A stretch of 52,510 bases of DNA, the filler included, from Basidioascus undulatus (taxonomy: Eukaryota), in NCBI GenBank assembly GCA_000826855.1. It is 4 parts of 4 records of this genome, joined end to end, with 100 filler letters (N's around TTAATTAATTAA, not from the genome) between each part and the next. Parts side by side here need not be neighbours in the genome. Positions count along the whole stretch, not along the records: positions 1 to 13,076 come from JTLS01000846.1; 3 more parts are not named here. One strand, 5' to 3'. The position numbers and the translations under genes are program-made. Below the pieces are notes generated by a model that did not search any database, was not told the DNA's origin, and was given only the letters and a program-made list of their open reading frames with translations. Shown here one piece after another: positions 1-19,782 of the stretch (within the stretch, counting starts at the first letter, position 1; each line of letters starts with the position of its first letter).

Positions 1-53
1 CAAAGGGAAGGGGCTGGGCCTGGGGCTCATCGGACCGGGGAGTGCCTGAGGGA

Positions 54-1583
54 CTAACCAAGCCATACCGAGCCATCGAGGCCTCCGATACCCTGGTCCA
101 CGTTACTGATGTCCGAGTACCGGGACCAACGGAGAGACGAAACGGCGCCCATAAGGATGAAGAAAAGAAGGGGATATTCCGTCTCATCCCGCGTCGTCTC
201 TAGAGGGGCAGTATACACCGACCTTTGACCACCCTCTACGTGGGGCCCCGCTCCCCGGCACCACCACCAGTACCAGGCATCTATAGAGCTGGCGTCGATG
301 GTAGACACCCAGGGCGCGATGTTCCTCGCCAAAGAGCCCACGAGGCCTCGGCGGGCAGCGCACAGACTGGTGAGTTCGGAGAGGTACGGGCTGGGGGTTG
401 GGGCCTCCGGGCTACCGGGCACCCTCACCCCCCATGCATGGGTACGGGTAAACCCCATCAGTGCCTCGACAGCCTCTGTAGTAAGCTGGGCGTGCCCCAG
501 GTCCGAGCAACAGCGCGCCACCAGGTAGGCGTTCACTACCCTCGAGTGGGGGTCAAGGGTACCCAAGAACTCCATCACCCTCTTCGCATTGCCCTCGGCG
601 AGCACCCCATAGAGGCCCAGGTAGGTGTCGTACAGCTCTCGGCCCCCCGCGGCCGGGGCCTGGGGCCTATCTCCCGGAACTATGCGCTGGCCCAGCACCA
701 AGGTAATGTCCTTCTCGAAGGAGGCAACTGCATCGCCTCGCGCCGCGAACAGAACTGCCCTCGGGACCACCCCGGGGCTGCCTATGTACTCGAACTTGCG
801 GGCCATCTGTGCAACAAAGACCTGAGGGTACTCCCGGCACCAGGCAGGCAGCTGGGACACGGTATGGTACACGTGTGAGGTAAACGCCCGGCAGCCGTCG
901 AGCGGCGCCCCGCTCCCTTCGCTCGCTGCACGTCGGTAGAGCCTCTGTGCCGAGGGCCCCATAGGTCTGTACCTTGCCACGGTCCCTATTGCGCCGTGCT
1001 GAGTCGACTCTATGCTGGACTCACCCGTCAGCAAGAACCTGCCCCGCACGGGATCAAAGTCCACGAAGTCCATACCGTCGTGGACGGCAGCGATCACCAG
1101 TGCCCGTACGGAAATCCGCGCGAGCACGGTCGGTAGTTCGGACGGAAAGGTATCCATGGACGCGGAGGACCAGTCTAGAGTCAGGTAGGAGTCTGCGCCC
1201 GTAGCTGCTGCGGACTGCGCAAGGGTGTACCAGGGCGCCACCTTACGCGACACTTTGGCGTCCCCCCGTAGCCTCCCGGTCAGGCCAGAGCCGTCGGGAG
1301 ACTGTCCGGTGGTGGCTATCTGTGGGACGTCGTACTTGATCTCGAAGCGGAACCCCAGCCTCAGCCTCCTCCACCCCGACCTCCTTGCCTTACGGCGGAA
1401 GCCTAGCATACCAGTGTCGACCCCGTCGAACTGCAAGCTACAATATACGCTTTCGTCACACTTTCTCAGGTCGGCCGAGGAGGAGAAGAGGCTCTGGGCT
1501 AGCTGCGCCACGGCTATGATGAAAGCGACGCCGGCCAGGACCGCAGCCGCTACGGTACCCGCCGTGGATGGATCCATTCCCAT
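54..1583 (-). CDS. Modin/MOD-A-like protein with N-terminal transmembrane helix (~509 aa)
   Basis: N-terminus AVLAGVAFIIAVAQLAQSLFSSSADLRKC..SV, then FRFEIKYDVPQI and SMDTFPSELPTVLARISV...GMDFVDFDP...GTVARY, match my recollection of the fungal modin family pattern (LQQY.A...R.C..SV / FRFE....P / SWD.MP.....P.A). Start set at the first ATG (1583; alternative 1577). Confidence 0.65.
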   Translation of the reverse strand: MGMDPSTAGTVAAAVLAGVAFIIAVAQLAQSLFSSSADLRKCDESVYCSLQFDGVDTGMLGFRRKARRSGWRRLRLGFRFEIKYDVPQIATTGQSPDGSGLTGRLRGDAKVSRKVAPWYTLAQSAAATGADSYLTLDWSSASMDTFPSELPTVLARISVRALVIAAVHDGMDFVDFDPVRGRFLLTGESSIESTQHGAIGTVARYRPMGPSAQRLYRRAASEGSGAPLDGCRAFTSHVYHTVSQLPAWCREYPQVFVAQMARKFEYIGSPGVVPRAVLFAARGDAVASFEKDITLVLGQRIVPGDRPQAPAAGGRELYDTYLGLYGVLAEGNAKRVMEFLGTLDPHSRVVNAYLVARCCSDLGHAQLTTEAVEALMGFTRTHAWGVRVPGSPEAPTPSPYLSELTSLCAARRGLVGSLARNIAPWVSTIDASSIDAWYWWWCRGAGPHVEGGQRSVYTAPLETTRDETEYPLLFFILMGAVSSLRWSRYSDISNVDQGIGGLDGSVWLG

Positions 1584-1600
1584 CTTTGCCGGTGCACTCG

Positions 1601-1614
1601 CAACTCCAGCGTTG
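1601..1614. promoter_or_regulatory. CAAC-N6-GTTG palindrome upstream of the Modin-like gene
   Basis: caactccagcgttg, 17 nt from ATG 1583; the same motif recurs before other genes of the element. Confidence 0.55.
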
Positions 1615-1687
1615 GTGCTCCGGGGGTGCGGCTTCGTTCCGGGGCGGCGCACGGCAAGGCCGGGGCACAAACGGCAGAGCAATTCTC

Positions 1688-1699
1688 CAACTGCGGTTG
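1688..1699. promoter_or_regulatory. CAAC-N4-GTTG palindrome upstream of the kinase gene
   Basis: caactgcggttg followed by ctggcac, 20 nt before ATG 1720. Confidence 0.55.
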
Positions 1700-1719
1700 C
1701 TGGCACTACACTGGACGCA

Positions 1720-2574
1720 ATGGATGAGTTTAAATACTCGAAAGGCGGCCGGTGGCTCTATACTGACGCAGAGGCGTACCTCTGGCACGGCGGGTGCTAC
1801 GTGAGGTTCGTCTACAAGCCGGGGACCTTGGCTGCCGATGTCCTTGCTTTCAGGAAGGACCTCCCCGAGTACGGCCACAGCCTCCTGATAGACGGGAATG
1901 ATGTCACACGCATAGACTACGAAGAGCCGCGAGAGCCCGGCAAGCCGGAGGACGACAGCGAGGACGTGTCCGAAGAGATGTTCGGACTTCCAGTCATCAA
2001 GACCGACGGGAAGGTCCACTACCTAAAGCGTTGCATGTACAAGAGCGAGATACAGAGCCTACTTAAGGTAAAGGGAGGTCCATCTGTGATAGAGCTACTG
2101 GGGCGTACGGAGGACATGAGGCTCGTCTTCCCTAAGTACACGACCGACCTCTTTGAGTACGTACTGAAGCACAGGGACACGGACTTCCGGCAGCACGCAA
2201 CATGGCTACTGCAGATAATCTCGGGTCTCGAGTGGCTCCACTCACGTGGGGTGGTCCACAGGGACCTTGTGCTCAGGAACATAATGTACTCGGAACCTGT
2301 GGTGATAGCCGACCTCGAGTCTAAGCACACCTCGCTTGCCTGCAGGCCACCTGAGGTCTCCGCGGGCGCCGAGTTCAGCCCGGCTAGCGATGTCTACGCG
2401 CTGGGCTTCTGCGCATGGCAGATGGAGAGACGCAACTATCCGAGGCCGTTCGCGCCGGTGGAACTGGAGGGCCCACTCGCAGAGATCTTCTGTGCCTGCA
2501 GACGAGAGAAGCCTGAGGACAGGCCGACCCTCGAAGAGCTCACCGCCGCTCTTGAGCCGATGAGAAGCCCGTGA
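1720..2574 (+). CDS. Eukaryotic-type protein kinase (284 aa)
   Basis: HYLK (beta3 Lys), EIQSL (helix C), HRDLVLRN catalytic loop, IADLE (DFG equivalent), PPE, SDVYALG, RPTLEEL. First ATG at 1720. Confidence 0.88.
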   Translation: MDEFKYSKGGRWLYTDAEAYLWHGGCYVRFVYKPGTLAADVLAFRKDLPEYGHSLLIDGNDVTRIDYEEPREPGKPEDDSEDVSEEMFGLPVIKTDGKVHYLKRCMYKSEIQSLLKVKGGPSVIELLGRTEDMRLVFPKYTTDLFEYVLKHRDTDFRQHATWLLQIISGLEWLHSRGVVHRDLVLRNIMYSEPVVIADLESKHTSLACRPPEVSAGAEFSPASDVYALGFCAWQMERRNYPRPFAPVELEGPLAEIFCACRREKPEDRPTLEELTAALEPMRSP

Positions 2575-2633
2575 GAGGCGCGGGGTAGCCCTGGCCGGTA
2601 TGGCGCGCTGGACGGCGTTGCTGGAGGATGCCC

Positions 2634-2646
2634 AGTTTTGAAAACT
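2634..2646. terminator. Candidate bidirectional terminator AGTTTTGAAAACT
   Basis: Palindrome between the convergent kinase and candidate-SSB genes; the same TTTTGAAAA core lies at the RNAP/PolB junction. Confidence 0.3.
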
Positions 2647-2778
2647 ACGCTACAACACATGACTTAGGATTCATCCGTCTCATCCTGGACTCGATCAACT
2701 TCCTACGCGTTCTCTCGGATCTCCCAGACAGCGTGGCAGAGCTCTCCAGTGTAATCAGCGAGCTCTCGGAACGGGTGA

Positions 2779-3630
2779 TCAGTTTCCCCGGCCGGCAGCG
2801 GGGGCTTCATCCTCAAGCTCGGGCTCGTCCTCAAGCTCAGGCTCCTGGTGACCGGAGTCGGTGATACCTGCGAATGCGAGGACCTCGGCACTGGCAACGA
2901 GACGGCGACTGGCACCAGCGCTCGACGCACCCTGGTTGGGGGCATCGGGACCCTTCACATCCGAAGTACCCGTGAGAAGCGCGGAGTTGAGGGTGAAGCT
3001 GAAAGTCCAGTCTCCCTCGTTAGTGCCAGAGACAGGCTCACCAGTGCACTTCACCCGGATCTCACTGAGAATGGCACAGACCAAGCTCTTCCCGTCCGCA
3101 TTAACAAGCACGTCGCGGAGCTTAATGTTGTACACGTCACCCTGGGAGTTGATAGTGCTCCACGTGCACTCGGTAGGGATCGCACCCTGACGGGCGGCGG
3201 GACGCTTGAGAGTGATGTTGACCCACGCGTACCCCTCCTTCTGCTGGACCCTAGGGTGAGTGAGGTTCACGCCACGGGCCTTCACCTTCTCGGTAAGGGC
3301 GTTCCAAGTCTTGAGAGGGAAGCCGGCGGTGAAGTAAGTGTCACCGTACGTAGCGTTGAGACGCTCACGGTTCTGCACGACGATGTCCGTGAAGAGAGAG
3401 CGGGGGAGTACGACATTGCCAGGGCACACTTGGTCAACCTTCGCGACGTGGGTGTGGAGAGGCGCCTTCGAACGCGCGATCTCCAGGTTACCCACGGCAC
3501 CGTCCAGCCTCCTCATCTCACCGACGTGGTAGTTGAACTGACGGGCCCTGTCAGGAGTGATGAACGCAGGCTCCTGAACCTCAAGCTCACCACTCTCGTT
3601 ACGGCGCTGGTACTGGACTTCGGCAGACAT
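2779..3630 (-). CDS. Hypothetical 283-aa protein; candidate single-stranded DNA-binding protein
   Basis: Clean ATG ORF with strong codon bias (antisense frame also open), a beta-rich-looking core and an acidic tail (EPELEDEPELEDE), next to the helicase. SSB function is inference only. Confidence 0.7.
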   Translation of the reverse strand: MSAEVQYQRRNESGELEVQEPAFITPDRARQFNYHVGEMRRLDGAVGNLEIARSKAPLHTHVAKVDQVCPGNVVLPRSLFTDIVVQNRERLNATYGDTYFTAGFPLKTWNALTEKVKARGVNLTHPRVQQKEGYAWVNITLKRPAARQGAIPTECTWSTINSQGDVYNIKLRDVLVNADGKSLVCAILSEIRVKCTGEPVSGTNEGDWTFSFTLNSALLTGTSDVKGPDAPNQGASSAGASRRLVASAEVLAFAGITDSGHQEPELEDEPELEDEAPAAGRGN

Positions 3631-3664
3631 GATAAGTTATTGCTATACTTCAGAGTGAGTATCG

Positions 3665-3678
3665 CAACGGTCACGTTG
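3665..3678. promoter_or_regulatory. CAAC-N6-GTTG palindrome upstream of the candidate SSB gene
   Basis: caacggtcacgttg in the 65-nt intergenic gap, 34 nt from ATG 3630. Confidence 0.55.
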
Positions 3679-3695
3679 GGCTCACGTCCTGAGTT

Positions 3696-5096
3696 TTAGA
3701 AGGATCCGGGGGAAGGGCGATTGGGGCGCAAATACTTTATGAAGCGGAATCCGGTATTACCCATAGCCTCTACGGTAGTCGGGGACATTAAGGAAGCGAG
3801 GTGCCCTAGCCTGTCGAGGGGCATGCGCGTGAGGGAGGAGACGATTACGCTGGCTTCGATCCAGTCTTCGGGTGACGACTCGTAGTCTACCACGACGTGT
3901 TCCATGATGAACGACCACTCGGCACCGAATATGGTCATGATCACGCTGACAGGCGCTATTACGGCACTGGGTGACCTCAGGCGCACGTATACGCAGAGGT
4001 AGATGAAGTCTAGCCAGTGTTCAGGACGATCGGGCATGATGATACGGGGGAGTGCAGTAGCATTGACGTTCATGTGCACGACTATGGCACGCCGTATGAT
4101 GGCCTCCGAGGACCACTCCTCTACGGTTCTGCTGGAGGGTAATGAGTTGCTACCCATGACTACGGTACTGCTGATCGTAGCTGACGACGGGGGGATAGGT
4201 ACTGAGTCCCTACCCGTGACTGCCTTGATGAGGCCGAGGTTGACGTTGCTGCCAAGCTCTACGTCTCCGGACACCGCTAGTCTTGTGGAGGCCAGCGACT
4301 GGGCTACGTCGACACCCAGAGTCTTGGATGCCCTGGTAAACGCATCTGATGGAAGTGTACACGAGCAGCCTGCGAGGGCAGTCTGTAGGCATCTGATGAG
4401 AGTACTCTTGCCTGTGCCACCAGGGCCGTAGAGGATGATCATCCTTGCTTGGGATGCCGGGTCCAGTAGGCAGTTGCCCACGGACCAGAGGATGGTATCG
4501 AGTTGCGTCCTGTCAGGGAAGAGACGACTCAGGAAGTGGAGTACTACACTCGGGCTCTCCTTGATACTCCATCTCGGAAGGACGCTGGATATCCTAATGG
4601 GCATGATGGAAACCGACTCTACGCGCGCTTTGCCAGCGACCGATATTACAGTGGGCACGTTAATGAGGGGAGGGCATTGACTCGCTATCAGGCCATCCTC
4701 GCCGTCGAGTGCGACGCGCAGCCTCGTGTTGGATACGCAGATGCTCGGGGGTATTACCTCCACGGGGATTGCGAAGCTCTCGATGAGAGAGGAGTAGGGA
4801 CGCATGGCCGTAAGGTAATTGACTGTGGCACTGTCGGCCTCTACCACGGAGCATACGGTGACCTGTGCCTCCGGGGCACAGAGGGGAGCCCAGTGGTTGT
4901 GGCTCGGAAGATAAATTACTACTGTGCCTTGCACCTTGGCGACCATGCCCCTGCCCTTGTAGATTGATGTTATTCTCCCGAACTTCTCGGGTGCCCCGTA
5001 GGTACCCTCCACAGGGACCAGGTGGGACTCGTCCTCTATCGGGGTATGGGGCTGCTCATGTTGACTCGCCAGCGCAGCTTCGGCGAACGATCGCAT
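3696..5096 (-). CDS. Superfamily 3 (D5/P4-like) helicase with an uncharacterised N-terminal domain (~466 aa)
   Basis: Walker A IILYGPGGTGKST, degenerate Walker B LAVSGDVE, IKAVTGRD, motif C VMGSN, arginine finger AIIRR. ATG 5096 chosen because 5141 is GTG and ATG 5126 lies inside the promoter palindrome. Confidence 0.82.
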   Translation of the reverse strand: MRSFAEAALASQHEQPHTPIEDESHLVPVEGTYGAPEKFGRITSIYKGRGMVAKVQGTVVIYLPSHNHWAPLCAPEAQVTVCSVVEADSATVNYLTAMRPYSSLIESFAIPVEVIPPSICVSNTRLRVALDGEDGLIASQCPPLINVPTVISVAGKARVESVSIMPIRISSVLPRWSIKESPSVVLHFLSRLFPDRTQLDTILWSVGNCLLDPASQARMIILYGPGGTGKSTLIRCLQTALAGCSCTLPSDAFTRASKTLGVDVAQSLASTRLAVSGDVELGSNVNLGLIKAVTGRDSVPIPPSSATISSTVVMGSNSLPSSRTVEEWSSEAIIRRAIVVHMNVNATALPRIIMPDRPEHWLDFIYLCVYVRLRSPSAVIAPVSVIMTIFGAEWSFIMEHVVVDYESSPEDWIEASVIVSSLTRMPLDRLGHLASLMSPTTVEAMGNTGFRFIKYLRPNRPSPGSF

Positions 5097-5116
5097 GGCG
5101 CAAGGTAGTGGCACCG

Positions 5117-5130
5117 CAACGCGCATGTTG
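5117..5130. promoter_or_regulatory. CAAC-N6-GTTG palindrome, shared bidirectional site for the helicase and RNAP genes
   Basis: gtgg-caccg-CAACgcgcatGTTG-ccggtcg-ccac, centred between divergent ATGs 5096 and 5149 (20 and 18 nt away). Confidence 0.6.
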
Positions 5131-5148
5131 CCGGTCGCCACATCAACG

Positions 5149-6975
5149 ATGAGCCACGAGCCGCGACCCGTAGAGCTGACCAGGCTAGCTTACGATGGAG
5201 CACTTGCCATTGAGTGTTTCTCCGTGAAACGCTACAGACTCACAAAGGTGGACATGAGGAAGGTTGCTACAGTGAGAGTGTCGACACCCCAGGAGTACAT
5301 GGCGGGCTGCCCCATCCACGACAGGTGCGCAGGCCACTTTGCAAGGACTCCTACTGGGACTCTACTCATGCCCCACAGGTTCCCCGCCCTCGCAGGTAAT
5401 GCAGAGAACCGCTATGCCAGGCTTGCCTCTGACCTGATGGAAAAGAGGGGAGGAAGTGAAGCCTACAATCAGGGACTGCTGGGTATCATGATGACTAAGG
5501 GAGGGACCTTCAGATACAGTGTGCTCTCGGGGTCTGTAGATGGCAGTGCGCGGCTGGTAATAGCTCCATGTTGGGGACTCCTAAGGAACCAAGTGGCCCT
5601 CCCTCGCAGGGTGGCTGAGAACATGAAGTATCTGAAGCACACCGGGACGTCGGCCTCCCCTGACCACCCCGAGGGCTCGTACGAGGCTGTCAGTGTCCAG
5701 GAGGGAGACTACGCGATAGTGGTAAGGCCTCCATCCCTTACGTTCTCCAATGCACAGCCGATGGAGGTAGTGCTGTGGGACAACGAGTGCATGGGACTCT
5801 CGCCCCTCAACTGCAGTGAGTACCACGCGGACTTTGACGGCGACGAAATGCACGTGTATCCAATATCTTCGCCCCTCGCAGTCGAAGAGGCGCGTCAGTG
5901 GGTCCAGTTCGTCAGGCAGGAGAGAGATGATCCCTTCGCTAACGTCTACGCCTTACCCGCCGCTCGAGCGGCGGCCTCTACTTCGTTCGTGCCTGCGGAG
6001 GGGTGGCAGTCAGCGAGGGGAGAGCAGTTGCCTGCGTTTATGCCTAGTACCACGACAGACATGGCGGAAATGATGACAGGTGCGCCCCTACCGGACGGAT
6101 ACGCGGGTGCCCGTGTGAAACCATCCACATGTGAGATGTTTGCAGAACTCGCATCTACTGGCGGCCCCAGCATCGAAGACTTCTACGAGGAGTCACTCAG
6201 GGGGTTGGATGACATCATGTCACAACAACTCATGCAGGGCACCATAGGAGACATGTCAAGGCAGGCCAGGCTTGCCGCTTCGTGCGTGATAGGGCCCCGT
6301 GCCGACGGGTCCATAACGATGGCATCCTTCTCGTCGACTAAGAGCATAGGGAGCTCAGGAGTGCTTGAGGACTGTCTGCCGGGGTCACCCGCGATGGTAG
6401 CTGCCAGTGCACTATGCGGGGTAGCCCAGCAAGCCGCGTTGGACTCACACAGGGCACACAAGGAGAAGGCATCCAGGGAAGACCTCATCGCAGGCCTGTT
6501 CAAGGGGAGTGGCAAGTCCCTGCGTATACTTACAGGCTCGGACAGCAACGCGGAGTGGCAGATGCGTGTAGGGGACGTCTGGGTATCGTACGGACCCGTA
6601 CAGCGGCCTCTGACTTCCTCACGGACCCTGGGTGCGGTAGCTCCGAGTGAACTGGCTAGACTACCCCACCGTAGGGCTGCCGCGAGACTTGCCCTGCAGT
6701 ATCTGAGTGCCTACTATGGAGTGTCCCTAAGTGAAGCAGAGCTTTCCTCACTGGCCGCACTGCTTGCGTACGAGCCGTCGAGATCAGACACACCACCCAC
6801 GCACAAGGAAGGTATGGCGGCACGGGACATGAGGTGGTTAGCGACATTAGCAGTAGGGCACTTCAGTCTGATACGTGGCATGGCCAAGGATTCCAGGTCG
6901 GCGCGGTGGACTACCCCAGACACCATCTCGGAGGCTATGACATTTGCCTCCTTCTACCGGCTCCTCGGGTTTTGA
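5149..6975 (+). CDS. Miniature DNA-directed RNA polymerase largest-subunit (Rpb1/beta') homolog (~608 aa)
   Basis: Catalytic YHADFDGDEMHVY; KGGTFRYSVLSGSVDGSARLVIAP (~[22 protein letters not shown]); VVRPPSL (~NRQPTLH); CPIHDRCAGHF (clamp Zn site); bridge-helix-like EDFYEESLRGLDDIM...GDMSRQ; trigger-loop-like PGSPAMVAASALCGVAQQAALDSHR. Confidence 0.9.
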   Translation: MSHEPRPVELTRLAYDGALAIECFSVKRYRLTKVDMRKVATVRVSTPQEYMAGCPIHDRCAGHFARTPTGTLLMPHRFPALAGNAENRYARLASDLMEKRGGSEAYNQGLLGIMMTKGGTFRYSVLSGSVDGSARLVIAPCWGLLRNQVALPRRVAENMKYLKHTGTSASPDHPEGSYEAVSVQEGDYAIVVRPPSLTFSNAQPMEVVLWDNECMGLSPLNCSEYHADFDGDEMHVYPISSPLAVEEARQWVQFVRQERDDPFANVYALPAARAAASTSFVPAEGWQSARGEQLPAFMPSTTTDMAEMMTGAPLPDGYAGARVKPSTCEMFAELASTGGPSIEDFYEESLRGLDDIMSQQLMQGTIGDMSRQARLAASCVIGPRADGSITMASFSSTKSIGSSGVLEDCLPGSPAMVAASALCGVAQQAALDSHRAHKEKASREDLIAGLFKGSGKSLRILTGSDSNAEWQMRVGDVWVSYGPVQRPLTSSRTLGAVAPSELARLPHRRAAARLALQYLSAYYGVSLSEAELSSLAALLAYEPSRSDTPPTHKEGMAARDMRWLATLAVGHFSLIRGMAKDSRSARWTTPDTISEAMTFASFYRLLGF

Positions 6976-6978
6976 AAA
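6970..6978. terminator. Candidate bidirectional terminator TTTTGAAAA at the RNAP/PolB convergent junction
   Basis: Overlaps the RNAP stop (6973-6975) and abuts the PolB stop (6979-6981). Confidence 0.3.
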
Positions 6979-9135
6979 TCACAGCCCATCTGAATAAGAT
7001 AAGATAGTGGCAAGGTTCCCAACACCTGCAGGGACGCAGAAGTGCTTGATCTCAGCCAGCGCTACTTCGAGGACGGCTGTCCTACTGTACGGAACAACCG
7101 CGTCAGGCTCTATGTTGTCCAGGTCCACCGACTGGCGCGTCCCATCCTTGGCAATGTACTGGTAGCACATGGTCCCCTCGATGCGGAGAACCTTCGAGAC
7201 CTGTGAGATGTTCAGCTTACCCCTGCGCGCCACGTGCTCTGCCTCTTCTATAATTGAAGCCACAGCTACTCTCTTGGCCAGGAGGGACTCCTTGCTGAGA
7301 AGTACACTAAGGATGTCGCCCGCTACCTTCCTTGCGTAACCCACCCTGTCCTTGCGGTTGTACGAGATGCCCTTACGAACCTCCTTGCCATCTGAACGAA
7401 TGTACGCGTAATGTTTCTTGCCGAGGAGAAGCATGGATTCAATCGATGCCTCAACTTCCATGGCAGCACTCTTCATCCCTGCGAACTCCATGATACGCTT
7501 AAGAATACGGTTCGCGTCCGCTGCGTGAGCCATTGCCGAGCCTGCGTACCTCCTGTCCGTCACACTCGTTCTCTTTAGGAAGCATGAGTCAGTATCTCCA
7601 TATACGACCTCCAGACCGCACATGGAGAAGACGTACGCTGCGAGGGCGAGACTCCACCTTCCTGCTAGAGTAACGCATGAGGCCGCGTGAGGGCTGTAGA
7701 TGGGAGCATAGCGGAACCCGAGGGCCCCGTACATGCTGTTGGACAAGACCTTGATGGCGTTCGAATACGGGGGATTGCTGCGATGCTGGGCACGCAGCCT
7801 GGTGAGGTACTCCAGTGCTCTGGACATTACGGGAGACTCCAATCTACTGAGAGACACCACGTTGTCACCGATCGCCACGGTGGTCGCCGAGTCAGTCCAC
7901 GAGAGCCACCCCGTGCCCTGGCCCACCCCGCCTATGGGCGTCACTACTGCCGACTCTGGTGATATGCCCAGGTCGATCATGATGGTGGGGTACATGGACT
8001 TGAAGTCGACAAGTACGAGATCGCTATGCATGCCCCTTACCGGAGGGAGGACGAGACCACCCTCTATCTCCATCTCTATGTCGCATCTAGTCCAGTCCAT
8101 GGCAAGTCCCTGGGCGAAGCAGTAGGATGATATCGCACAGGCAGCCATCGTGCCAGTGACATACCTTGCCACGTCGAGCAGGCAGGAGCATGCGGCCACG
8201 CAGAGACCAACGAGTTCCCGCTCTACCCGTAGGTGATCCCAGATCTGTAGAGCGACGACGCAATCGTTGACGTTGTACTCCAGCATGTCCTCCATGTACC
8301 CCGGGTCTGACGCCTCGAGGGGCATGTGGGTCTTCGGGGCCACGTTACACACCTCCGCCACGGAACTGAGCTTCAGGGAGGGAAAGCGCGACCTGTGTAC
8401 CTTGTCCAAGTAGATGAAGAGATCTACATTGTTCACCCCTATGATGTCAAGGTAGAAGGAGTACACAGGGCCGCCCTTGGATCCGTTGTTAATGGGCACG
8501 AACTGGGACACTCTCAACCGGGGTGCGTGGTAGAGAAGACGTGAGTTGTCGAAGTTGTAACAGTTGTATCCGATGAGCCACGCAGGCATGTGGGTCTCCA
8601 TATCTCTGATGAACTCCTCCACGAGTAAGGTGGAGTCGTACACCCTCCGCGAATGGGGAGCCTTCGTAGGACCGCCCGTATACCACGATGCCTTGTGTCC
8701 ACAGCTGCACACCACTGACATGCAGAGTATCCTTGCGTGAGGAGGGGGCAGTCCACCCTTGTCCCTTGTCGACATTTCGGTCTCGATATCGTACGACGCT
8801 ACACACGTCTTGGGGGCCGGCCTGGGAGGAAACCCCAGACCCGGTTCTGCCGACCCTCCGATGACGATGCCCAGGCATGAAGCTTCCCTCATCGCCCTTA
8901 GTCTCGGAGAGCACTGCCATACCAGAGATGAAGGTCCCGCCTCTCCGTCAGCCTCAAGCCTGGGTATCACAGGAAGGTCCGATACTGAGCCGTCCTTAGA
9001 CACGTCAATCTCCTCCACGACATCGCCTGTATCGCCCGTAAACCTGACACGGAGATTGCCTGCGTCGTCCGAGCCCGTCCAGGAGATGTACGCTCCCTGC
9101 GATAGTTTGTGCCTCACGTGTGCGAGACCGCTCAT
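6979..9135 (-). CDS. Family B DNA polymerase with 3'-5' exonuclease, RNA-primed type (~718 aa)
   Basis: ExoI YDIET, ExoII GYNCYNFD, ExoIII YNVNDC, motif A DFKSMYPTIM, motif B KVLSNSMYG, motif C YGDTDS, KKHY. B-to-C spacing is short, with no evident TPR insert. First ATG at 9135. Confidence 0.95.
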   Translation of the reverse strand: MSGLAHVRHKLSQGAYISWTGSDDAGNLRVRFTGDTGDVVEEIDVSKDGSVSDLPVIPRLEADGEAGPSSLVWQCSPRLRAMREASCLGIVIGGSAEPGLGFPPRPAPKTCVASYDIETEMSTRDKGGLPPPHARILCMSVVCSCGHKASWYTGGPTKAPHSRRVYDSTLLVEEFIRDMETHMPAWLIGYNCYNFDNSRLLYHAPRLRVSQFVPINNGSKGGPVYSFYLDIIGVNNVDLFIYLDKVHRSRFPSLKLSSVAEVCNVAPKTHMPLEASDPGYMEDMLEYNVNDCVVALQIWDHLRVERELVGLCVAACSCLLDVARYVTGTMAACAISSYCFAQGLAMDWTRCDIEMEIEGGLVLPPVRGMHSDLVLVDFKSMYPTIMIDLGISPESAVVTPIGGVGQGTGWLSWTDSATTVAIGDNVVSLSRLESPVMSRALEYLTRLRAQHRSNPPYSNAIKVLSNSMYGALGFRYAPIYSPHAASCVTLAGRWSLALAAYVFSMCGLEVVYGDTDSCFLKRTSVTDRRYAGSAMAHAADANRILKRIMEFAGMKSAAMEVEASIESMLLLGKKHYAYIRSDGKEVRKGISYNRKDRVGYARKVAGDILSVLLSKESLLAKRVAVASIIEEAEHVARRGKLNISQVSKVLRIEGTMCYQYIAKDGTRQSVDLDNIEPDAVVPYSRTAVLEVALAEIKHFCVPAGVGNLATILSYSDGL

Positions 9136-9142
9136 CTGTAGC

Positions 9143-9173
9143 GTGGAAGGACAACTGTCCGTTGGACTGCCAC
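9143..9173. promoter_or_regulatory. Symmetric GTGG-N5-CAAC-N5-GTTG-N5-CCAC bidirectional site between PolB and the first APH-like gene
   Basis: gtgg aagga caac tgtcc gttg gactg ccac in the 63-nt divergent intergenic gap. Confidence 0.6.
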
Positions 9174-9198
9174 TCACCAGCCGCGCCAGCCACTCGCC

Positions 9199-9945
9199 AT
9201 GCCCGATTCGACAGACCGCAGGCCGCGTGAGGAAGGATGCGTCGGTATCACGCACGAGAAGAAGTACTACGAGATAGACGTACACGGCACGAAGACCTTC
9301 GTCAAGCGCTCGTTAAGGCCAGAGGAATGGATGACCAATAGAGCTGGGAGGGTGATCATCCCCGACATCTGTATCCAGCGCTTGCGTAACGAGGCCGCGG
9401 CCATCCAATACATCAAGGAGAACACAGACATTCCGGTGCCTACAGTAAGGTGTGCATTCGAGGACGACAGGGCCTTCTACCTCATCACCGACTTCGTGGA
9501 GGGCGTTCGCCTTTGTGACCTTCCAGAGGAACAGAAGCCTTCTGTCATGGCAGAGGTAGAGAAACACCTGGAAACCCTGCGAAACCTCAAGTCCGGCAAG
9601 ATGGGGGGCCTTGCGGGTGATTGCTGCTTTCCATGGAGGATAGCTCGGCATCTGACGACACCCTTTCCCCCTAAGTACCGCGACAGTGAGGGGGAGGATT
9701 ACGTTTTCTGCCACGGCGATCTCTCGCAGCACAACGTCATAGTGGACCCCGAGACTCTGAAGATAAGGGCGATCGTAGACTGGGAGTATGCGGGCTTCTA
9801 CCCCCGCCAGATGGAGGGCCTCTTCTACAAGCGGGTCGGCCCCTCTGATGCCGTGGCCGACGAAGTGAGCGATGTACCCGAGATCCTGGCGCTACTTACC
9901 GACCTAGAGGTCAGGAGGACTCCGGTAAAGAAACAACAGAGTTGA
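9199..9945 (+). CDS. APH/choline-kinase-like phosphotransferase, fungal type (248 aa)
   Basis: TFVKRS, RLRNEAAAIQYIKENTDIPVP, Brenner motif CHGDLSQHNVIVD, IVDWEYAGFYP. Confidence 0.9.
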   Translation: MPDSTDRRPREEGCVGITHEKKYYEIDVHGTKTFVKRSLRPEEWMTNRAGRVIIPDICIQRLRNEAAAIQYIKENTDIPVPTVRCAFEDDRAFYLITDFVEGVRLCDLPEEQKPSVMAEVEKHLETLRNLKSGKMGGLAGDCCFPWRIARHLTTPFPPKYRDSEGEDYVFCHGDLSQHNVIVDPETLKIRAIVDWEYAGFYPRQMEGLFYKRVGPSDAVADEVSDVPEILALLTDLEVRRTPVKKQQS

Positions 9946-9971
9946 GACGCCATCGTTCTCCTCCTGGCCCA

Positions 9972-10133
9972 ATGTCCGTCCTTGCACGCTTCCTCCACAC
10001 TCTATTCGGCGCGAGGGTCGCGATCCCCAGCGGCCTCGTTCTTCACCCCTCTACCGTGGTGCGCTGCTCCACCTGTGGCGTCACTGTTTCGAGCACTCAG
10101 TCTGTCTGTCACAGCTGTGGCAACGCTCCGTAG
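9972..10133 (+). CDS. Small Zn-ribbon protein (53 aa)
   Basis: MSVLARF...RCSTCGVTVSSTQSVCHSCGNAP contains CxxC-x10-CxxC; preceded by CAAC-aga-GTTG at 9934-9944. Confidence 0.55.
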   Translation: MSVLARFLHTLFGARVAIPSGLVLHPSTVVRCSTCGVTVSSTQSVCHSCGNAP

Positions 10134-10157
10134 GCACGCACCACCCACCCCCACCCC

Positions 10158-10277
10158 GCCCCCTGTAGCACCCTAATCTCCTGTGCCACCACGTAGTCTG
10201 TTTGTTGTTGTTGCTGAGTGTCTGTTGGCATGTTACCCCTGTATTCGCCATACCCTAACCCCGCTACATACCCTCCC
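10158..10277 (+). repeat. Diverged 120-bp non-coding direct repeat, copy 1
   Basis: Begins with the exact 16-mer gccccctgtagcaccc and shares the tgttgttg, catgtt(a/g)ccc and cccta blocks with 12948-13067. Confidence 0.7.
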
Positions 10278-10311
10278 CAAAACCCTGCCGATCACAGGGC
10301 TGCACGCAAGG

Positions 10312-10332
10312 CAACAGGAGTTGAGCGGCCAC
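10312..10332. promoter_or_regulatory. CAAC-N4-GTTG-N5-CCAC upstream of the tandem APH ORF
   Basis: caac agga gttg agcgg ccac; the palindrome ends 25 nt before ATG 10349. Confidence 0.55.
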
Positions 10333-10348
10333 TCAGTAGGCAGCCAAC

Positions 10349-12823
10349 ATGTGTGACACGTGGACTGTGAAAGTTCCCCTTTACGACGACGCGGGCCTGC
10401 CCTTCGACATCACGGGTCTCCTTGTCGACACCGCTGATGGGCCTGTACTCGTCGTAAGGAGGCCTGGACTGACGGGCGCCCCGGGGCCTGCCGATGCGAC
10501 GACACTTAGGAAGCTGACTGAAATCCAGAGTATAGGCAAGCTGGTCCTTAAGGGTAAGCTCAAGCAGGATGTGGATGGGGTGCTGGCTACGTCGAACGAC
10601 CTCATCGCTAAGTTCTCAGGGAGTTGGACGTACGAGGCCTCGCTAGACCACTGGGACTCCGTGGCACTTGCGCTCCGGAGCAAAAGCATGATGCCGCCCG
10701 GGATGCTAGCACCCCCCAGGTGGCTGATCGACAGGTTCTTTCCCTGCCAGGCCGCCAGCTTTGAGGTGCTCCAGGACAACCCCGACACGTGTACCGGCCT
10801 GGTCTCTACAACGCTAGGCAGCAAGTACATCCTCCGTCTTGCCAGAGGTCGGGATAACGTGGAGCGTGCCCTCGCTACCGAGGCCCTGATGAGCCTGGCG
10901 CGTACCAAGGTGCCTGTCCCCAGAACAATAGACAGCTTCTGTTGGGAGGAGGACGGCAAGCCCCTCTGTGCGACAGTCGTTGAGTATGTCTACGGCTCCA
11001 CTCTCGAAGACGAGTGGGAGGAGCTCACCAGGGACGAGAAGCTATCGTACGTTGACCAGATCGTGGAGCTACTCGCCGGCCTCCATACGCTGAAGAGCGA
11101 CAGGCTTGCCCCCAACGACCCAAGGACCACGAGCGCCCTGGGCTTCCGCGAGGGTGACCCGCGCTGCTTCCCGGACACCAGGACGTGGCTGAAGGCCCTT
11201 GTTGAGTCATACTGGGGCAGCGAAGCTCCTCCCGCTGGGATCAGGGAGCAGCTGGAGGCCCTCGGTGCGCCGGAGCACCCCTACGTTCTGTGTCACAACG
11301 ACATGGAGCCTCGTAACATAATGGTGCGTGGTGGTAAGGTGGTGTCCATCATAGACTGGGAGTTCGCCGGCTACCAGCCTTTTATCTACGAGTGGGTGGT
11401 ACCTAGCACGGGGCTGGGCACAAGCTGCATCAACTACGAGTGGCACGTCATGTTCAGGCAGGCCGCTGCGAAACTTCTTCCGCGCGAAGACCCAGTTATG
11501 GAGCGGCTGATCCTTGACATCTTTAACGGGCTCTGGAACACCGTGTGGAAGAGGAGAAAGGTAGCCGGGTTCCGGCTGGCCTTCATGGCTAAGCACGGCG
11601 TCGTCGAGGGTGACCTGTGGAGGCCTCCTACCGCCGCCGGATCTATAACTGAGATGGGCGCTACCCAGACGCAGCCGGCGGAAGGCACCCCGAGACCGTA
11701 CACAGTCGGGAGTACAACAGAGTTGAAAAAGCCACGCTCATCCTCGAGCGCTTCGTTGGCCTTATACCCAATCACCCCTGTAGCGCAGTGGTCAGCAACC
11801 ATGAACGCCTCCGAAGGTAACGCGGAGTACCCCCTGCCGACCAAGATACCCAACGTGGATAAGCTTCCGCCGTTCGGGACTACCGACGAGGAAAGGGCCA
11901 TTAGAATTGCCGAGCTCGACAGGAGGGATGCCTACGACCCTATTGCGTCAGGGGCGATACGGGAGATTTACAAGTGTTCTGAGCGTAAGGTCATTTCCAT
12001 AGACGGTCGCTTCGTACTCAAGACGGCATCCACCGTGAACCCTGCAGAGCAGGGCAGTATAGATATTGTCAGGGCGCGTACCACAGTACCGGTGCCTGAG
12101 ACTATAGAAAGGTGGTACAACCCCGAGGCACGCAAGCACTTTGTGCTTGACCGGCAGATCAAGGGGACGACTATGCTTGAGGCCATGAAGACCATGTCGG
12201 ACGCGGAGGTGGAGGCTGTGATGGAGCAGCTCAGAGGCTATCTCGCGAGCATCAGGTCCATTACCTCGGGGTCTCTGCACGTGGCTGGGAGCACGCTGCT
12301 GCTTGACTACCACCTGTCCCACGACTACCTTGTCTTTACGGGCGACGATCAGTGCCACGCGTTCATAAACCAACTAATGCTCTCGGGGAAGGTCGACCTT
12401 CGGTCTCGCAAGGCAGCCGTGGTTAGAGCGTTGCATGACAAGCACCTGGAAAGGTACCCCGAGGACAGGACCACCTTCGTCATGACCCACGGGGACCTGG
12501 GCCCTTATAATGTCATGGTGGACGGCGGCGCTGTAGCCTGTGTCATTGACTGGGAAACGTCTGGGTTTATGCCGGCCTATTGGGAGAGGATAAAGTCGAT
12601 GACCAGCGGGGACCAATCGCGCGTGTGGAAGGTATCTTTGAGCAAGGGACTCCCTCCCTGCCCTGAGATGGAAGCCGCCACCAAACTAATGCGGGAGCAC
12701 ATCCCTCTCGGCGTGCTCAGCGACGAGGGCCAGCAGTGTTACATCTCTGCGGCTCTCCTCGTTTACGGAGAAGAGACCAACCCGGTCGGGGACGCACCAA
12801 ACGTTCATTGCAATGAAGCTTAG
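10349..12823 (+). CDS. Tandem double APH-like phosphotransferase (824 aa; possibly two genes, the second starting at ATG 11801)
   Basis: Domain 1: TEALMSLARTKVPVP, CHNDMEPRNIMV, IIDWEFAG. Domain 2: VRARTTVPVP, THGDLGPYNVMV, VIDWETSGFMPAYWE. A low-complexity linker separates them. Confidence 0.88.
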   Translation: MCDTWTVKVPLYDDAGLPFDITGLLVDTADGPVLVVRRPGLTGAPGPADATTLRKLTEIQSIGKLVLKGKLKQDVDGVLATSNDLIAKFSGSWTYEASLDHWDSVALALRSKSMMPPGMLAPPRWLIDRFFPCQAASFEVLQDNPDTCTGLVSTTLGSKYILRLARGRDNVERALATEALMSLARTKVPVPRTIDSFCWEEDGKPLCATVVEYVYGSTLEDEWEELTRDEKLSYVDQIVELLAGLHTLKSDRLAPNDPRTTSALGFREGDPRCFPDTRTWLKALVESYWGSEAPPAGIREQLEALGAPEHPYVLCHNDMEPRNIMVRGGKVVSIIDWEFAGYQPFIYEWVVPSTGLGTSCINYEWHVMFRQAAAKLLPREDPVMERLILDIFNGLWNTVWKRRKVAGFRLAFMAKHGVVEGDLWRPPTAAGSITEMGATQTQPAEGTPRPYTVGSTTELKKPRSSSSASLALYPITPVAQWSATMNASEGNAEYPLPTKIPNVDKLPPFGTTDEERAIRIAELDRRDAYDPIASGAIREIYKCSERKVISIDGRFVLKTASTVNPAEQGSIDIVRARTTVPVPETIERWYNPEARKHFVLDRQIKGTTMLEAMKTMSDAEVEAVMEQLRGYLASIRSITSGSLHVAGSTLLLDYHLSHDYLVFTGDDQCHAFINQLMLSGKVDLRSRKAAVVRALHDKHLERYPEDRTTFVMTHGDLGPYNVMVDGGAVACVIDWETSGFMPAYWERIKSMTSGDQSRVWKVSLSKGLPPCPEMEAATKLMREHIPLGVLSDEGQQCYISAALLVYGEETNPVGDAPNVHCNEA

Positions 12824-12924
12824 CGTTACCTCCCTCATCAATGCCTGGAACTGTAAGTGTGGCACCAAACATGACGGGCACCACGGTATGTAGCAACTGT
12901 GGCGGACCTACCGCCGCCGGGTGA
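12813..12924 (+). pseudogene. Frameshifted small Zn-ribbon ORF (putative paralog of 9972-10133)
   Basis: MKLSVTSLINAWNCKCGT in one frame and NMTGTTVCSNCGGPTAAG* in the +1 frame; removing one A near 12867-12869 gives WNCKCGTNMTGTTVCSNCG. Confidence 0.4.
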
Positions 12925-12947
12925 GCAGCGGAGCGTAGCACCCTACG

Positions 12948-13067
12948 GCCCCCTGTAGCACCCCCAGTCTCCCCTGTACCACCATGCACCCCGTAATGTT
13001 GTTGAACGCCTGTATGACCATGTTGCCCAATACCCGTCTGCGCCCTAGCTCTGCTGCACGCCCACCC
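12948..13067 (+). repeat. Diverged 120-bp non-coding direct repeat, copy 2
   Basis: Same 2790-nt offset from copy 1 at both ends; exact gccccctgtagcaccc at 12948-12963. Confidence 0.7.
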
Positions 13068-13076
13068 ATTCAACTA

Positions 13077-13176
13077 NNNNNNNNNNNNNNNNNNNNNNNN
13101 NNNNNNNNNNNNNNNNNNNNTTAATTAATTAANNNNNNNNNNNNNNNNNNNNNNNNNNNNNNNNNNNNNNNNNNNN
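13077..13176. other. Artificial contig linker
   Basis: 100 nt of N with a central TTAATTAATTAA (stops in all six frames). Confidence 0.98.
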
Positions 13177-14904: not shown

Positions 14905-16332
14905 TCAACACGGTAGTGACTCACCAAGTCGATTACATGCGAGCTGTAATAGATGCAACTCAATGAGGACTGCGAGCAGAGTAGAGCTAAGAGCGGGCTT
15001 GGTGGTTCTTGTCAAAAGTAGAACAGATAAAATCTCTGCGTGTTTAGGAACCTCATAGCCCATTTGCCTACCGAAGAGATCCCGCTGCGTTGCGCGAGCT
15101 CCACGAGCGCCGTGAGGCCTTGCTCGAAAGCGACTCCACTTGTGGCCCACGAACGTGTTGGATGTCGACTCCAGATCGGAGACCTGGACCATCACGACCC
15201 CCCAGCGTATCGTGTTGAAGACTCCCCAGGCTGCCGCGTATGAGTTTCCCATACCGAGCTACAACCGCCAATTTCGCTGTCAGGTGAGCGTCCTCGCTGC
15301 CGCGCAATAACCTGAGAAACACGAACCACCCCGTGTACTAGATTTAGATAGATGGCATCTCTTATCGCGGTTTCCGTGAAAGCTCACGCGCCTGGACGAG
15401 AAGTACTTTGAGGCTGCGCAGCGAAACGCGGGGCCGCTCCTCAACATTGCTCGACCGCAGCCTACGAGAGAAAGAGAAAGTACGCCAGACCGGCAGCGAA
15501 GGCGAGGAGCTCGCAAACGAGGCGGATGGTCGCCTGAGTCAAGACAGTGGGTGTTACGCCGGGCATGTGGAAGGTCGAAAGAAACAGCAGGTCGAGCACG
15601 ATGTTCAGGACGGTCTTGCTTGACAGACGAGATGAAGAGCGGCGCGTCGCGGCTTGTCGATCGCTCTTCTCGCGAGCGAGACGGAGACTTCGACCTTCAA
15701 TGCGAGGGCCGAGAACGCGGAGATGGGGACATATTTGACGGATATTGCTTGGGCAGAGGGAACGAACGCGGCGGCGAAGCGAGGCGCAGCGCCGAGAAAG
15801 ACGATGGACAGCAGGAAACCGGCGATGGTTTGGACGAGGATGAGGGTGTAGGTGAAAGTCTAGATGTTGAGGATATAGAAAGGTCGTCGCCGATTGTGGA
15901 CCATGCCGCCGAGGCAACCCCTCGTTGAGGGTCTCGGTGACGGTCGAGAGGTAGGTGTATGCGTGGGTGGTGGAGACGACTGTAAACGGTCTCGATAAGC
16001 TTGCCTTGCCCATTTAGTGGAGAACGTTGGGACATGCGAAGGTGAAGAATCAATCTGTGCCACCCAAAGCTTGGAAAGGGTTGAAATAGAGCGCAGGAAG
16101 AAGAAAGGCAGCGAGGTTGAAGAGCAGCGCTCCGGAGGTAGCTGCCATCTCCAACTCCGAAAGAGCCGTGCATTGCACGGTGTTCATGAAAACTCAGTGC
16201 ACCGCTCTCTGGACCACCATTTCCCACTCCTGGACCACACTGAGGACTCTTGAGTCGGCGCGAGAACTCAGGCTCTGGCGACTTGTCACGTTCGAGCTCT
16301 ACCTCCTCAATGTCGACAGGTGGATTGGTCAT
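14905..16332 (-). pseudogene. Degenerate fungal MATE-like membrane transporter
   Basis: Colinear pieces in different frames: GALLFNLAAFLLPALY / STLSKLWVAQIDSS / TTHAYTYLSTVTETLNEGLPR / AAWSTIGD / ILVQTIAGFLLSIVF / KTVLNIVLDLLFLSTFH / [18 protein letters not shown]. Several frameshifts are not explained by introns. Boundaries are approximate. Confidence 0.65.
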
Positions 16333-18319: not shown

Positions 18320-19782
18320 ATGCCCCCTCGCAAGCGCGTCCGTGCCGAGTCAGTCTCCTCCAACGGGTCCGCCGCCGCCGACGACACGCCGACAGACGCT
18401 GCCCCGCCGTCGGTATCACTGAACACGCCCCTGCTCGAGTCCTACACCTGGCATTCAGAGATACCCGAACAGATCTTGAACCCCCTCACGGAGATGCCGC
18501 TGCCGGAGGACGGGAGCGAGGAGAGCCCGGAGCAGCGCGAGGCGAGGGATGAGGAGCGGAGGGGAAAGAGGGTCATGCTGGGTGTCGACGAGGCTGGCAG
18601 AGGGCCGGTTCTCGGTGAGTCTTCGCGTTTGTTTCCTCCAAAGAGTATGTTGATTGAGAGGATCTTCAGGCCCGCTCGTGTATGGCATCGCGTATTGCCC
18701 CATCAACTTCCTCGAGAAGCTCAAGGAGATCGGCTTCGCAGGTATACTCGCCCTCCTCACAAATCAAACGCGCCACATGAGCTGATGTCCATCCCTCGTC
18801 CAGACTCCAAAACCCTCACCGCCGAGTCCCGATCCACGCTCCTCCGCACGTTCGCCGCGCACGCGCACGCCCTGGGATGGGCCGTCCGCGTCATGGCCCC
18901 GCAGGACATCAGCGCGGGCATGCTCAAGCGGCACCCGTACAACCTCAACGCGCAGTCCCACGACGCGACCATTTCGCTCATCCAGGATGTGATGGACAAG
19001 GGGATCGACCTTGCCGAAGTTCGCGACTCAGATTCATTAACCGTTGCGGGACTCTGGCTGACGATTGCGGTCGGCATGCAGGTCTATGTCGACACCGTCG
19101 GACCGGCACAGTCGTACCAGACCAAGCTCGAGGGCCGGTTCCCTGGCATCAGTTTCACTGTCGCGTCCAAGGCCGACTCGCTCTTCCCGATCGTCTCTGC
19201 CGCGTCCATCGCGGCCAAGGTGACGCGCGACACCATCGTCGAGGGCTGGACCTTCGGGGAAAGCGGAAGCGTCGGGAAGGTGGCGAAGGTGGCGGCCGCA
19301 GAGGCCGACACAGCTCCTACGAAGAAGAAAGTTAGAGACGATAACGGCGAGGGCGAGACGAAGGCGGACGGACCGGCGGAGAGTGTGAACGACGAGCTCG
19401 GCAGCGGGTACCCAGGAGGTACGCTCTTCCGCCGTTGCTTATTCCTCCCCACCTCCTCTGATATCAGATGTCTGGCAGACCCGCGCACGGTCGCTTGGCT
19501 CAAGAACCACTTCGACAACGTCTTTGGCTATCCGCAGGTGGCGCGCTTCAGCTGGGCGACGGTCAAAACCATTTTGGAGAAGAAGGGCGTCACGGCGACT
19601 TGGTGCGTCGGTTTCGCACCTGGGGCTTGGCGTAACGGGTGCAACCAAACTGACCCCATGGGTCTTCCATCAGGATCGACGAGCCTAAACCTCTCAGCCA
19701 ATATTTCAGCACTCAGCCTGCCAACGCGAAGCGGCCGGCTGCGCTGAAGGAGCTCGGGCTGGTATCTGTTTCAGACCTGTAG
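18320..19782 (+). CDS. RNH201: Ribonuclease H2 catalytic subunit A, spliced
   Basis: GVDEAGRGPVLG, DSKTL, YNLNAQSHD, VYVDTVG, KADSLFPIVSAASIAAKVTRD, GSGYP, RFSWATVK. Confidence 0.95.

Follow-up and report, generated by a model that had tools for sequence, protein, structure and literature searches.

A palindromic motif as the probable core promoter of a compact, polymerase-encoding DNA element in the Basidioascus undulatus assembly

The element and its palindrome

The DNA analysed here is a window of 52,510 bases from the Basidioascus undulatus genome assembly, composed of four pieces of 13,076, 13,063, 13,058 and 13,013 bases with joins of the form N44-TTAATTAATTAA-N44 at positions 13077-13176, 26240-26339 and 39398-39497. 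The subject of this paper is a DNA element that accounts for the first of these pieces only (1-13076, hereafter piece 1), and in particular a short palindrome, CAAC-N3-6-GTTG, that recurs in front of its genes. In piece 1, uninterrupted open reading frames (ORFs) are tightly packed on both strands, whereas the ORFs of the other three pieces are broken. These three pieces are host DNA; because they code for RNase HII (18320-19747) and a Prp18 splicing-factor domain (51344-52453), the host is taken to be a eukaryote. The element has a guanine-plus-cytosine (GC) content of 59% and is intron-free. Its nine genes (g1 to g9), which include a minimal RNA polymerase (RNAP) subunit (g5) and a family B DNA polymerase (PolB; g6), are separated by intergenic regions of 3-215 nt and arranged with two convergent junctions (g2/g3 and g5/g6) and three divergent regions. 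No inverted repeat was found between the two ends of piece 1, which is only part of the element. Contigs from run X1 extend past both ends, and piece 1 is therefore an incomplete element.

The initial annotation of this DNA listed eight copies of the palindrome by eye. All eight coordinates are confirmed, and the sites are as follows.

1601-1614, serving g1 (minus strand): CAAC-N6-GTTG, 17 nt before the g1 ATG (1583), with GCAC on the gene side
1688-1699, serving g2 (plus strand): CAAC-N4-GTTG, 20 nt before the g2 ATG (1720)
3665-3678, serving g3 (minus strand): CAAC-N6-GTTG, 34 nt before the g3 ATG (3630)
5108-5141, divergent, serving g4 (minus strand) and g5 (plus strand): GTGG-N5-CAAC-N6-GTTG-N7-CCAC with the palindrome at 5117-5130, 20 nt to the g4 ATG (5096) and 18 nt to the g5 ATG (5149)
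9143-9173, divergent, serving the PolB gene g6 (minus strand) and g7 (plus strand): GTGG-N5-CAAC-N5-GTTG-N5-CCAC with the palindrome at 9152-9164, 16 nt to the g6 ATG (9135) and 34 nt to the g7 ATG (9199)
9934-9944, plus strand: CAAC-N3-GTTG followed by N5-CCAT, overlapping the g7 stop codon and 27 nt before the g8 ATG (9972)
10312-10332, plus strand: CAAC-N4-GTTG-N5-CCAC, 25 nt before the g9 ATG (10349)
11715-11735, plus strand: CAAC-N3-GTTG-N6-CCAC, within the g9 ORF and 75 nt before an in-frame ATG at 11801

The motif had been placed before nearly every gene. An exact copy is in fact found within 60 nt upstream of all nine gene starts of piece 1, with its near edge 16-34 nt from the ATG, and the seven copies for which this distance had been reported serve these nine starts between them. 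The first 40 nt upstream of the gene starts make up 2.4% of piece 1 and contain the centres of six of the eight copies (binomial P 5e-9), and the centre of a seventh is 41 nt upstream of a start. The palindrome is present in all three divergent regions and at neither of the two convergent junctions of piece 1. Spacer lengths are 3, 3, 4, 4, 5, 6, 6 and 6 nt. The remaining copy, at 11715, stands inside a gene, and the second APH-like domain of g9 begins with the in-frame ATG at 11801; to judge from this arrangement, it looks like an internal promoter, or a promoter left over from a gene fusion.

Enrichment, direction and conservation

The initial annotation had considered the core to be rare by chance, and dinucleotide shuffling bears this out: the eight copies in piece 1 compare with 0.53 expected (sd 0.72, maximum 3), and none of 300 shuffles reached eight. 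Host DNA had been named as the comparison that could overturn the proposal. The three host pieces contain two, one and no copies against 0.65-0.83 expected, which is chance level. Over the whole window 11 copies are found against a mean of 2.42, a number reached by none of 100 shuffles. When all 256 four-base inverted repeats are counted with spacers of 3-6 nt, CAAC ranks first in piece 1, with eight copies against four for the next best, and 29th, 49th and 121st in the host pieces. An unbiased scan of 5-mers in the 60-nt upstream regions of piece 1 likewise returns CCAAC and GTTGC as its top words.

The two sides of the palindrome differ in their flanks. On the gene side, 9 of 10 positions in piece 1 have a CAC 5-11 nt downstream of GTTG, against 1 of 6 positions facing away from a gene (p 0.008); pooled over four elements, the corresponding counts are 17/29 and 2/23 (p 3e-4). 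This flank had originally been written as GTTG-N5-CCAC. In that exact form it occurs at only four of the ten oriented sites (six with CCAC at N5-N7), so that the extension holds as a CAC at a variable distance and not as a fixed spacing. Both shared divergent sites carry the CAC element in mirrored form, and the GTGG/CCAC flanks earlier described for divergent pairs are present on both sides at 5108-5141 and at 9143-9173, the latter being the fully symmetric arrangement, correctly given as such. In the relatives described below the counterpart is YAC at +7 to +10, in the form of T[TC]AC in L001 and GCAC in L003.

Conservation was assessed in four true relatives of the element, found on metagenome contigs through their RNAP, two of which are of about 2 kb: L001 (13.4 kb, GC 42%), L003 (21.7 kb, GC 49%), L002 (2 kb, GC 31%) and L004 (2.2 kb). 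They come from unrelated samples, and ORF starts in them are our own calls from ORF lists. They are distant from piece 1, with RNAPs 29-30% and PolBs 33-39% identical, and have in common with it a convergent RNAP-PolB gene pair. L003 also codes for an Rpb2-like subunit (799 aa, with Rpb2 domains 6 and 7), an RNase H and a D5-type NTPase, and L001 for a TFIIS-type zinc ribbon fused to a methyltransferase-like region. The palindrome occurs upstream of genes in three of these relatives, L001, L002 and L003, as expected of a signal conserved in homologous elements. L001 has ten exact copies, eight of which are intergenic though non-coding DNA makes up only 15% of the locus, and nine of the ten take the extended form GCAAC-N3-GTTGC (0.03 expected). 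All seven exact copies in L003 have a 3-nt spacer and lie upstream of ORF starts, and the 5-bp form is found four times against 0.08 expected. In L002, three of three copies are intergenic, all with a 4-nt spacer. The upstream 5-mer scan gives GCAAC and GTTGC as the top words in L001, and GTTGC as the second in L003.

More widely, 39 homologues of the g5 RNAP were found at 26-36% identity on contigs of up to 38 kb, and the few named by source belong to three fungal phyla (Linnemannia, Hirsutella, Ophidiomyces and Puccinia). For the g6 PolB there are 11 homologues, and among those with a name only the most distant (25% identity) bears the label of a cellular family-B polymerase. A search of IMG/VR with the RNAP gave only giant-virus Rpb1 matches at about 25% identity, and with the PolB three weak matches. 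In a collection of prokaryote genomes the PolB found only cellular archaeal and bacterial PolB, at 21-34% identity.

The promoter reading and its rivals

We consider it probable, on the strength of these sequence comparisons, that the palindrome is a core promoter, specific to the family and partly bidirectional, from which the element's own minimal two-barrel RNAP transcribes. The promoter interpretation proposed in the initial annotation gains support from the enrichment in the element only, the position before genes, the direction-linked CAC, the lack of copies at convergent junctions and the conservation in relatives. For the machinery, we count g5 with its intact catalytic motif, and the Rpb2-like subunit of L003. 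We infer that the element's polymerase, alone or with an element-encoded factor, would read the palindrome as a promoter.

The core promoter would comprise (G)CAAC-N3-6-GTTG(C) together with a CAC (YAC) 5-11 nt downstream on the gene side, and would be typical of a family of compact, intron-free DNA elements with their own PolB and minimal two-barrel RNAP. Every gene or short gene group would form a separate transcription unit. Because the repeat is symmetric, one copy between divergent ATGs could serve both genes, while the flanking CAC would set the direction of transcription and probably the start site too, with initiation at or near the CAC and leaders of about 8-30 nt. These units would be closed by a second signal, TTTT(N)AAAA, acting as a T-run terminator both ways.

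In piece 1 this second signal occurs twice.

2636-2644, convergent g2/g3 junction: TTTTGAAAA palindrome, putative bidirectional T-run terminator
6970-6978, convergent junction of g5 (RNAP) and g6 (PolB), overlapping the g5 stop codon: TTTTGAAAA palindrome, putative bidirectional terminator

These two copies, exactly at the two convergent junctions, compare with 0.01 expected. L001 has six copies against 0.53 expected, five of them 3-47 nt after stop codons, and L003 has eight overlapping matches against 0.40 expected, equivalent to five distinct sites, four of them just after stops. The motif thus stands mostly 0-60 nt past stop codons in the two relatives, and is 10-200 times more frequent than in shuffled sequence. 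Four-base runs are scarce in piece 1, with 5 TTTT and 8 AAAA against 15-31 and 22-44 in the host pieces, an avoidance that fits T runs as stop signals. From its placement, TTTT(N)AAAA is probably a bidirectional T-run terminator.

Several observations weigh against the promoter reading. The 2.2-kb relative L004 has no copy of the palindrome, and L005, a distant partial match, has one. Exact copies within 60 nt accompany no more than 7 of the 13 predicted starts of L001 and 6 of the 18 of L003; the remaining starts belong to overlapping, operon-like genes or have variant palindromes or none. Taken alone, the 4-bp count in L003 exceeds that of shuffles only modestly (seven copies against 2.32, a number attained by 3 of 300 shuffles). 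In L001, the copy at 2734 is in a convergent intergenic region, adjoins a terminator-like motif and has no ORF of at least 50 aa to serve. A beta-like RNAP subunit is absent from the 13-kb piece 1, which is an incomplete element. A search for sequencing runs containing the element listed none on record as RNA, and the three runs compared are contigs of presumably DNA origin. The single-strand folds of the eight sites are weak (-1.5 to -6.1 kcal/mol), two of the eight minimum-energy folds lack the CAAC/GTTG stem, and only two or three of eight beat shuffles at z < -2; the 3-6 nt range of spacers in piece 1 is at the same time awkward for a rigid dimeric factor.

The exceptional L001 copy has 7-bp arms (TGGCAAC-N3-GTTGCCA, 2731-2747) and is found about 25 nt from TTTTAAAAA in a convergent intergenic region of 360 nt. 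It could be the promoter of a very short transcript or of a small gene missed in annotation.

Natural variants bear on the question of whether the palindrome is recognised as duplex half-sites or as an extruded or melted DNA hairpin. Over 2781-7697, run X3 contains a variant 95-99% identical to the element. At the palindrome 3665-3678 this variant has a 1-nt deletion in the spacer, at 3671, with both arms intact, and upstream of g3 it has four substitutions in the presumed leader (3634-3646), positions 3647-3670 being unchanged; the 20 listed differences agree with the count for that contig. In the relatives' 5-bp sites, the third arm position reads A/T in 14 cases, G/C in three and mixed in two; wherever the left arm has G, at three sites, the right arm has the mirrored C. 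Two of these, of the form GCGAC-N4-GTCGC, are located 17 and 24 nt before L001 gene starts. Such symmetric double substitution favours a constraint on pairing or on symmetry, as far as sequence can tell. The hairpin reading draws on these mirrored G/C changes, on the variation of spacers between 3 and 6 nt and on the spacer deletion in the run X3 variant that spares the arms. On the other hand, the stems in piece 1 are of 4 bp (5 bp at 5116-5131) with loops of 3-6 nt, they fold only weakly, and the arm sequence is conserved instead of freely covarying across elements of 31-59% GC, which tells against a stable hairpin. Arms longer than 5 bp are found in three of nine L001 and two of seven L003 sites; by our estimate this is about the frequency expected by chance, and longer stems were therefore not taken as evidence of pairing. 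Overall, we regard recognition of a hairpin as unlikely, if worth bearing in mind. Were it true, a minimal eukaryote-associated two-barrel RNAP would be using structure-specific promoters, in an undescribed lineage of self-transcribing fungal PolB elements with a complete palindromic grammar of start and stop signals.

Two related observations can be added. Sites of the class GCGAC-N3/4-GTCGC, which may represent a second promoter class or a sign of base pairing, are found at 5727-5740, 6509-6522 and 241-255 in L001 and at 16204-16216, 7803-7817 and 1972-1988 in L003. Within the g3 gene, the substitutions of the run X3 variant are mostly transitions at multiples of three, as expected for synonymous change.

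The position of the motif 16-34 nt before the ATG is also where an element of the 5′ leader would sit, and the change to GCGAC...GTCGC in relatives preserves pairing. The palindrome might thus be transcribed and act as a leader hairpin, in RNA stability, capping or translation, with the true promoter further upstream. At the two divergent pairs, however, the distances to the ATGs are 16-20 and 18-34 nt, and promoters upstream of the palindrome would fall in the opposite coding region. Stems of 4-5 bp would be marginal in such a role, the arm sequence itself is held constant from 31% to 59% GC where free covariation would be expected, and the direction-linked CAC lies downstream of the repeat and not upstream. 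This makes a leader hairpin distinctly improbable. An inverted repeat in intergenic DNA could alternatively be a transcription terminator or a hairpin for 3′-end processing; Mimivirus transcripts reportedly follow a hairpin rule for their 3′ ends, and the copies at 3665, 9934 and 10312 are also downstream of the preceding gene in tandem. Against this, the distances are fixed relative to ATGs and not to stop codons, the palindrome occupies three of three divergent regions and none of the two convergent junctions, and its hairpins are weak. It is further made less likely by TTTT(N)AAAA, which takes the 3′ ends in the window and in the relatives. We give a terminator role almost no credence.

Palindromic sites are typical of dimeric transcription factors, and the element is part of a eukaryotic assembly, so that a nuclear factor of the host might bind the motif and the genes be read by host RNA polymerase II. 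Yet the 39 kb of host pieces contain the motif no more often than chance predicts, relatives of 31-49% GC from unrelated samples conserve it, and the source-named RNAP homologues are spread over three fungal phyla. The very short distance between motif and ATG, the lack of introns, the short intergenic regions and the possession of an RNAP all point to self-contained expression, and no TATA-like word occurs in the nine upstream regions of piece 1. A host factor is accordingly very unlikely. Much the same low probability attaches to sites of replication initiation or gene-cassette recombination, bound for example by the superfamily 3 (SF3)-type NTPase g4, with the position before genes being secondary. 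In small DNA viruses, helicases of SF3 bind origins that are palindromic. In run X2, contigs are broken at 5099/5125 and at 6924/6984 with word depth differing on either side, a contig of run X3 departs from the window inside the spacer of 5117-5130, and these breaks and this divergence together hint at an exchange of modules at the signals. One would not, however, expect eight to ten origins per 13 kb, each at a fixed distance from an ATG and with a direction-linked CAC; assembly breaks at short repeats common to co-existing variants offer a trivial alternative, and if conserved promoters do recombine, this would follow from their promoter role and not compete with it.

The breaks in run X2 are at the 5117 and 6970 palindromes, and the successive segments have word depths of 371, 131, 47 and 91. 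One contig of low support skips 226 nt (9445 to 9672) with GT..AG ends. These breaks and the skip could reflect co-existing variants that exchange modules, or an assembly artefact.

Known systems and the genes of the element

The palindrome had been compared with the upstream conserved sequence (UCS) of yeast linear plasmids, and read as a core promoter it does resemble the UCS in function. In yeast virus-like elements (VLEs), the UCS precedes each ATG by 20-40 nt, transcription starts about 11 nt downstream of it, and a plasmid-encoded minimal RNAP reads it (PMC6211774). The UCS of the pGKL1/2 plasmids is, like the motif here, short, element-specific and placed before every ORF; the same source describes very short leaders and an element-encoded two-barrel RNAP that is independent of the nucleus (PMC6211774). 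The likeness does not extend to membership. The palindrome is unrelated in sequence to the UCS, and ATNTGA is found in none of the nine upstream regions, in which AAAATTGA and TAAAT are also absent. The element is 59% GC where the killer plasmids are AT-rich; its PolB is of the PF00136 type and theirs of the protein-primed PF03175 type; its RNAP has separate beta-prime-like (and, in L003, beta-like) subunits and theirs one fused large subunit; and its 3′ signal is a T/A palindrome where theirs are RNA stem-loops. Membership in the yeast killer plasmids is therefore rejected for want of ATNTGA and on account of the non-protein-primed PolB, the split RNAP and the high GC content; the system is functionally UCS-like but stands outside that family. 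Recently described relatives of the killer plasmids in other fungi are protein-primed elements of a different kind (PMC13348850).

A genome-wide short motif at a fixed short distance, read by a virus-encoded RNAP of multisubunit type, is also found in the early promoters of the Nucleocytoviricota, such as the poxvirus upstream control element and the Mimivirus motif AAAATTGA. These early motifs are AT-rich and asymmetric, unlike the palindrome described here, and AAAATTGA occurs nowhere in piece 1. The contigs of the relatives, too, measure only about 27 kb. Early genes of poxviruses use T-run based termination. This mode of termination is also discussed in the literature (PMC6211774). Among nucleocytoviral hallmarks, PolB, RNAP subunits and a sub-threshold D5-type match were seen, with only parts of the elements covered; Pfam searches of nine window proteins and 27 proteins of the relatives, all from partial elements, gave no capsid, A32 or VLTF3 family and no further virion hallmark.

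A third comparison is with phage N4, whose virion RNAP promoters are short inverted repeats with a stem of 5-7 bp and a loop of 3 nt, placed some 11 nt ahead of the start site. They are recognised through both sequence and structure, a structure-specific mode so far associated with that unrelated, T7-like virion polymerase. The relatives' GCAAC-N3-GTTGC has the same geometry, with CAC at a similar downstream distance, but the enzyme of N4 is a T7-like single-subunit polymerase and that of the element a two-barrel RNAP. A hairpin promoter of the N4 type was rejected for piece 1, where stems are of 4 bp (one of 5 bp), loops range from 3 to 6 nt, folds are marginal and the RNAP is of the two-barrel kind.

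Literature searches directed at the element family found no description of it or of its motif, and a search with the arm sequence gave only primer noise. Giant viruses and the AT-rich yeast killer plasmids are known examples of self-transcribing cytoplasmic DNA elements in eukaryotes. Piece 1 and its relatives point to a further lineage, with a cellular-type PolB, a minimal split two-barrel RNAP and contigs of up to about 38 kb. Its transcription signals would be legible from sequence, as a palindromic promoter whose CAC sets the direction and a T/A palindrome that serves as terminator, and this grammar could guide the annotation of genes and small transcription units in elements of this kind. 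At about 25 bp, the promoter would be a compact and probably orthogonal part for expression systems built on the element's polymerase. It would further provide a tractable case of promoter finding by a stripped-down RNAP of multisubunit type that works without the usual cellular factors.

The nine genes of piece 1 are the following.

54-1583, minus strand: g1, protein of 509 aa with no Pfam family
1720-2574, plus strand: g2, protein kinase domain (PF00069, PF07714)
2779-3630, minus strand: g3, protein of 283 aa with a beta-rich predicted fold and an acidic C-terminal tail
3696-5096, minus strand: g4, P-loop NTPase with a sub-threshold match to the D5-type DUF5906 (20.6 bits, cut-off 27.6)
5149-6975, plus strand: g5, minimal beta-prime-like RNA polymerase subunit of 608 aa
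6979-9135, minus strand: g6, family B DNA polymerase of the cellular/viral PF00136 type
9199-9945, plus strand: g7, APH-like phosphotransferase
9972-10133, plus strand: g8, zinc-ribbon protein of 53 aa with Pfam matches under threshold
10349-12823, plus strand: g9, protein of 824 aa with two APH-like domains

The Pfam match of g5 is confined to Rpb1 domain 2 (8e-13), and its catalytic ADFDGDE does not vary in an alignment of 26 sequences. The g6 protein matches PF00136 at 2e-29, whereas the protein-primed family PF03175 reaches 16.4 bits, below its cut-off of 25.8. The nearest solved structures are archaeal PolB and also Pol alpha. Outside its own family, g6 is most similar to cellular archaeal PolB, with 24-27% identity to contigs of ANME-1/Methanophagales and related metagenome-assembled genomes, and its likeness is thus greatest to archaeal and not to protein-primed or giant-virus polymerases.

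For g1, the searches made returned no homologue, no solved-structure match and no Pfam family. The g3 protein has five homologues, all of them distant. Its structure model is of moderate quality (pLDDT 58, pTM 0.60) and has no Foldseek match at an E-value of 0.001 or better; its resemblance to single-stranded DNA-binding proteins of mitochondria and phages is weak (probability 0.2-0.63, E > 0.1) and only tentatively suggests, on the basis of the model, a protein of that type.

The APH-like domains of g7 and of the two g9 halves are paralogous. A module of about 200 nt stands downstream of g7 and again downstream of g9 (9972-10300 and 12841-13076); it begins with a small ORF for a Cys-rich zinc ribbon, after which comes a C-rich spacer with the common word CCCCCTGTAGCACCC. 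The end of piece 1 falls about where, after the g9 module, the next promoter would be expected.

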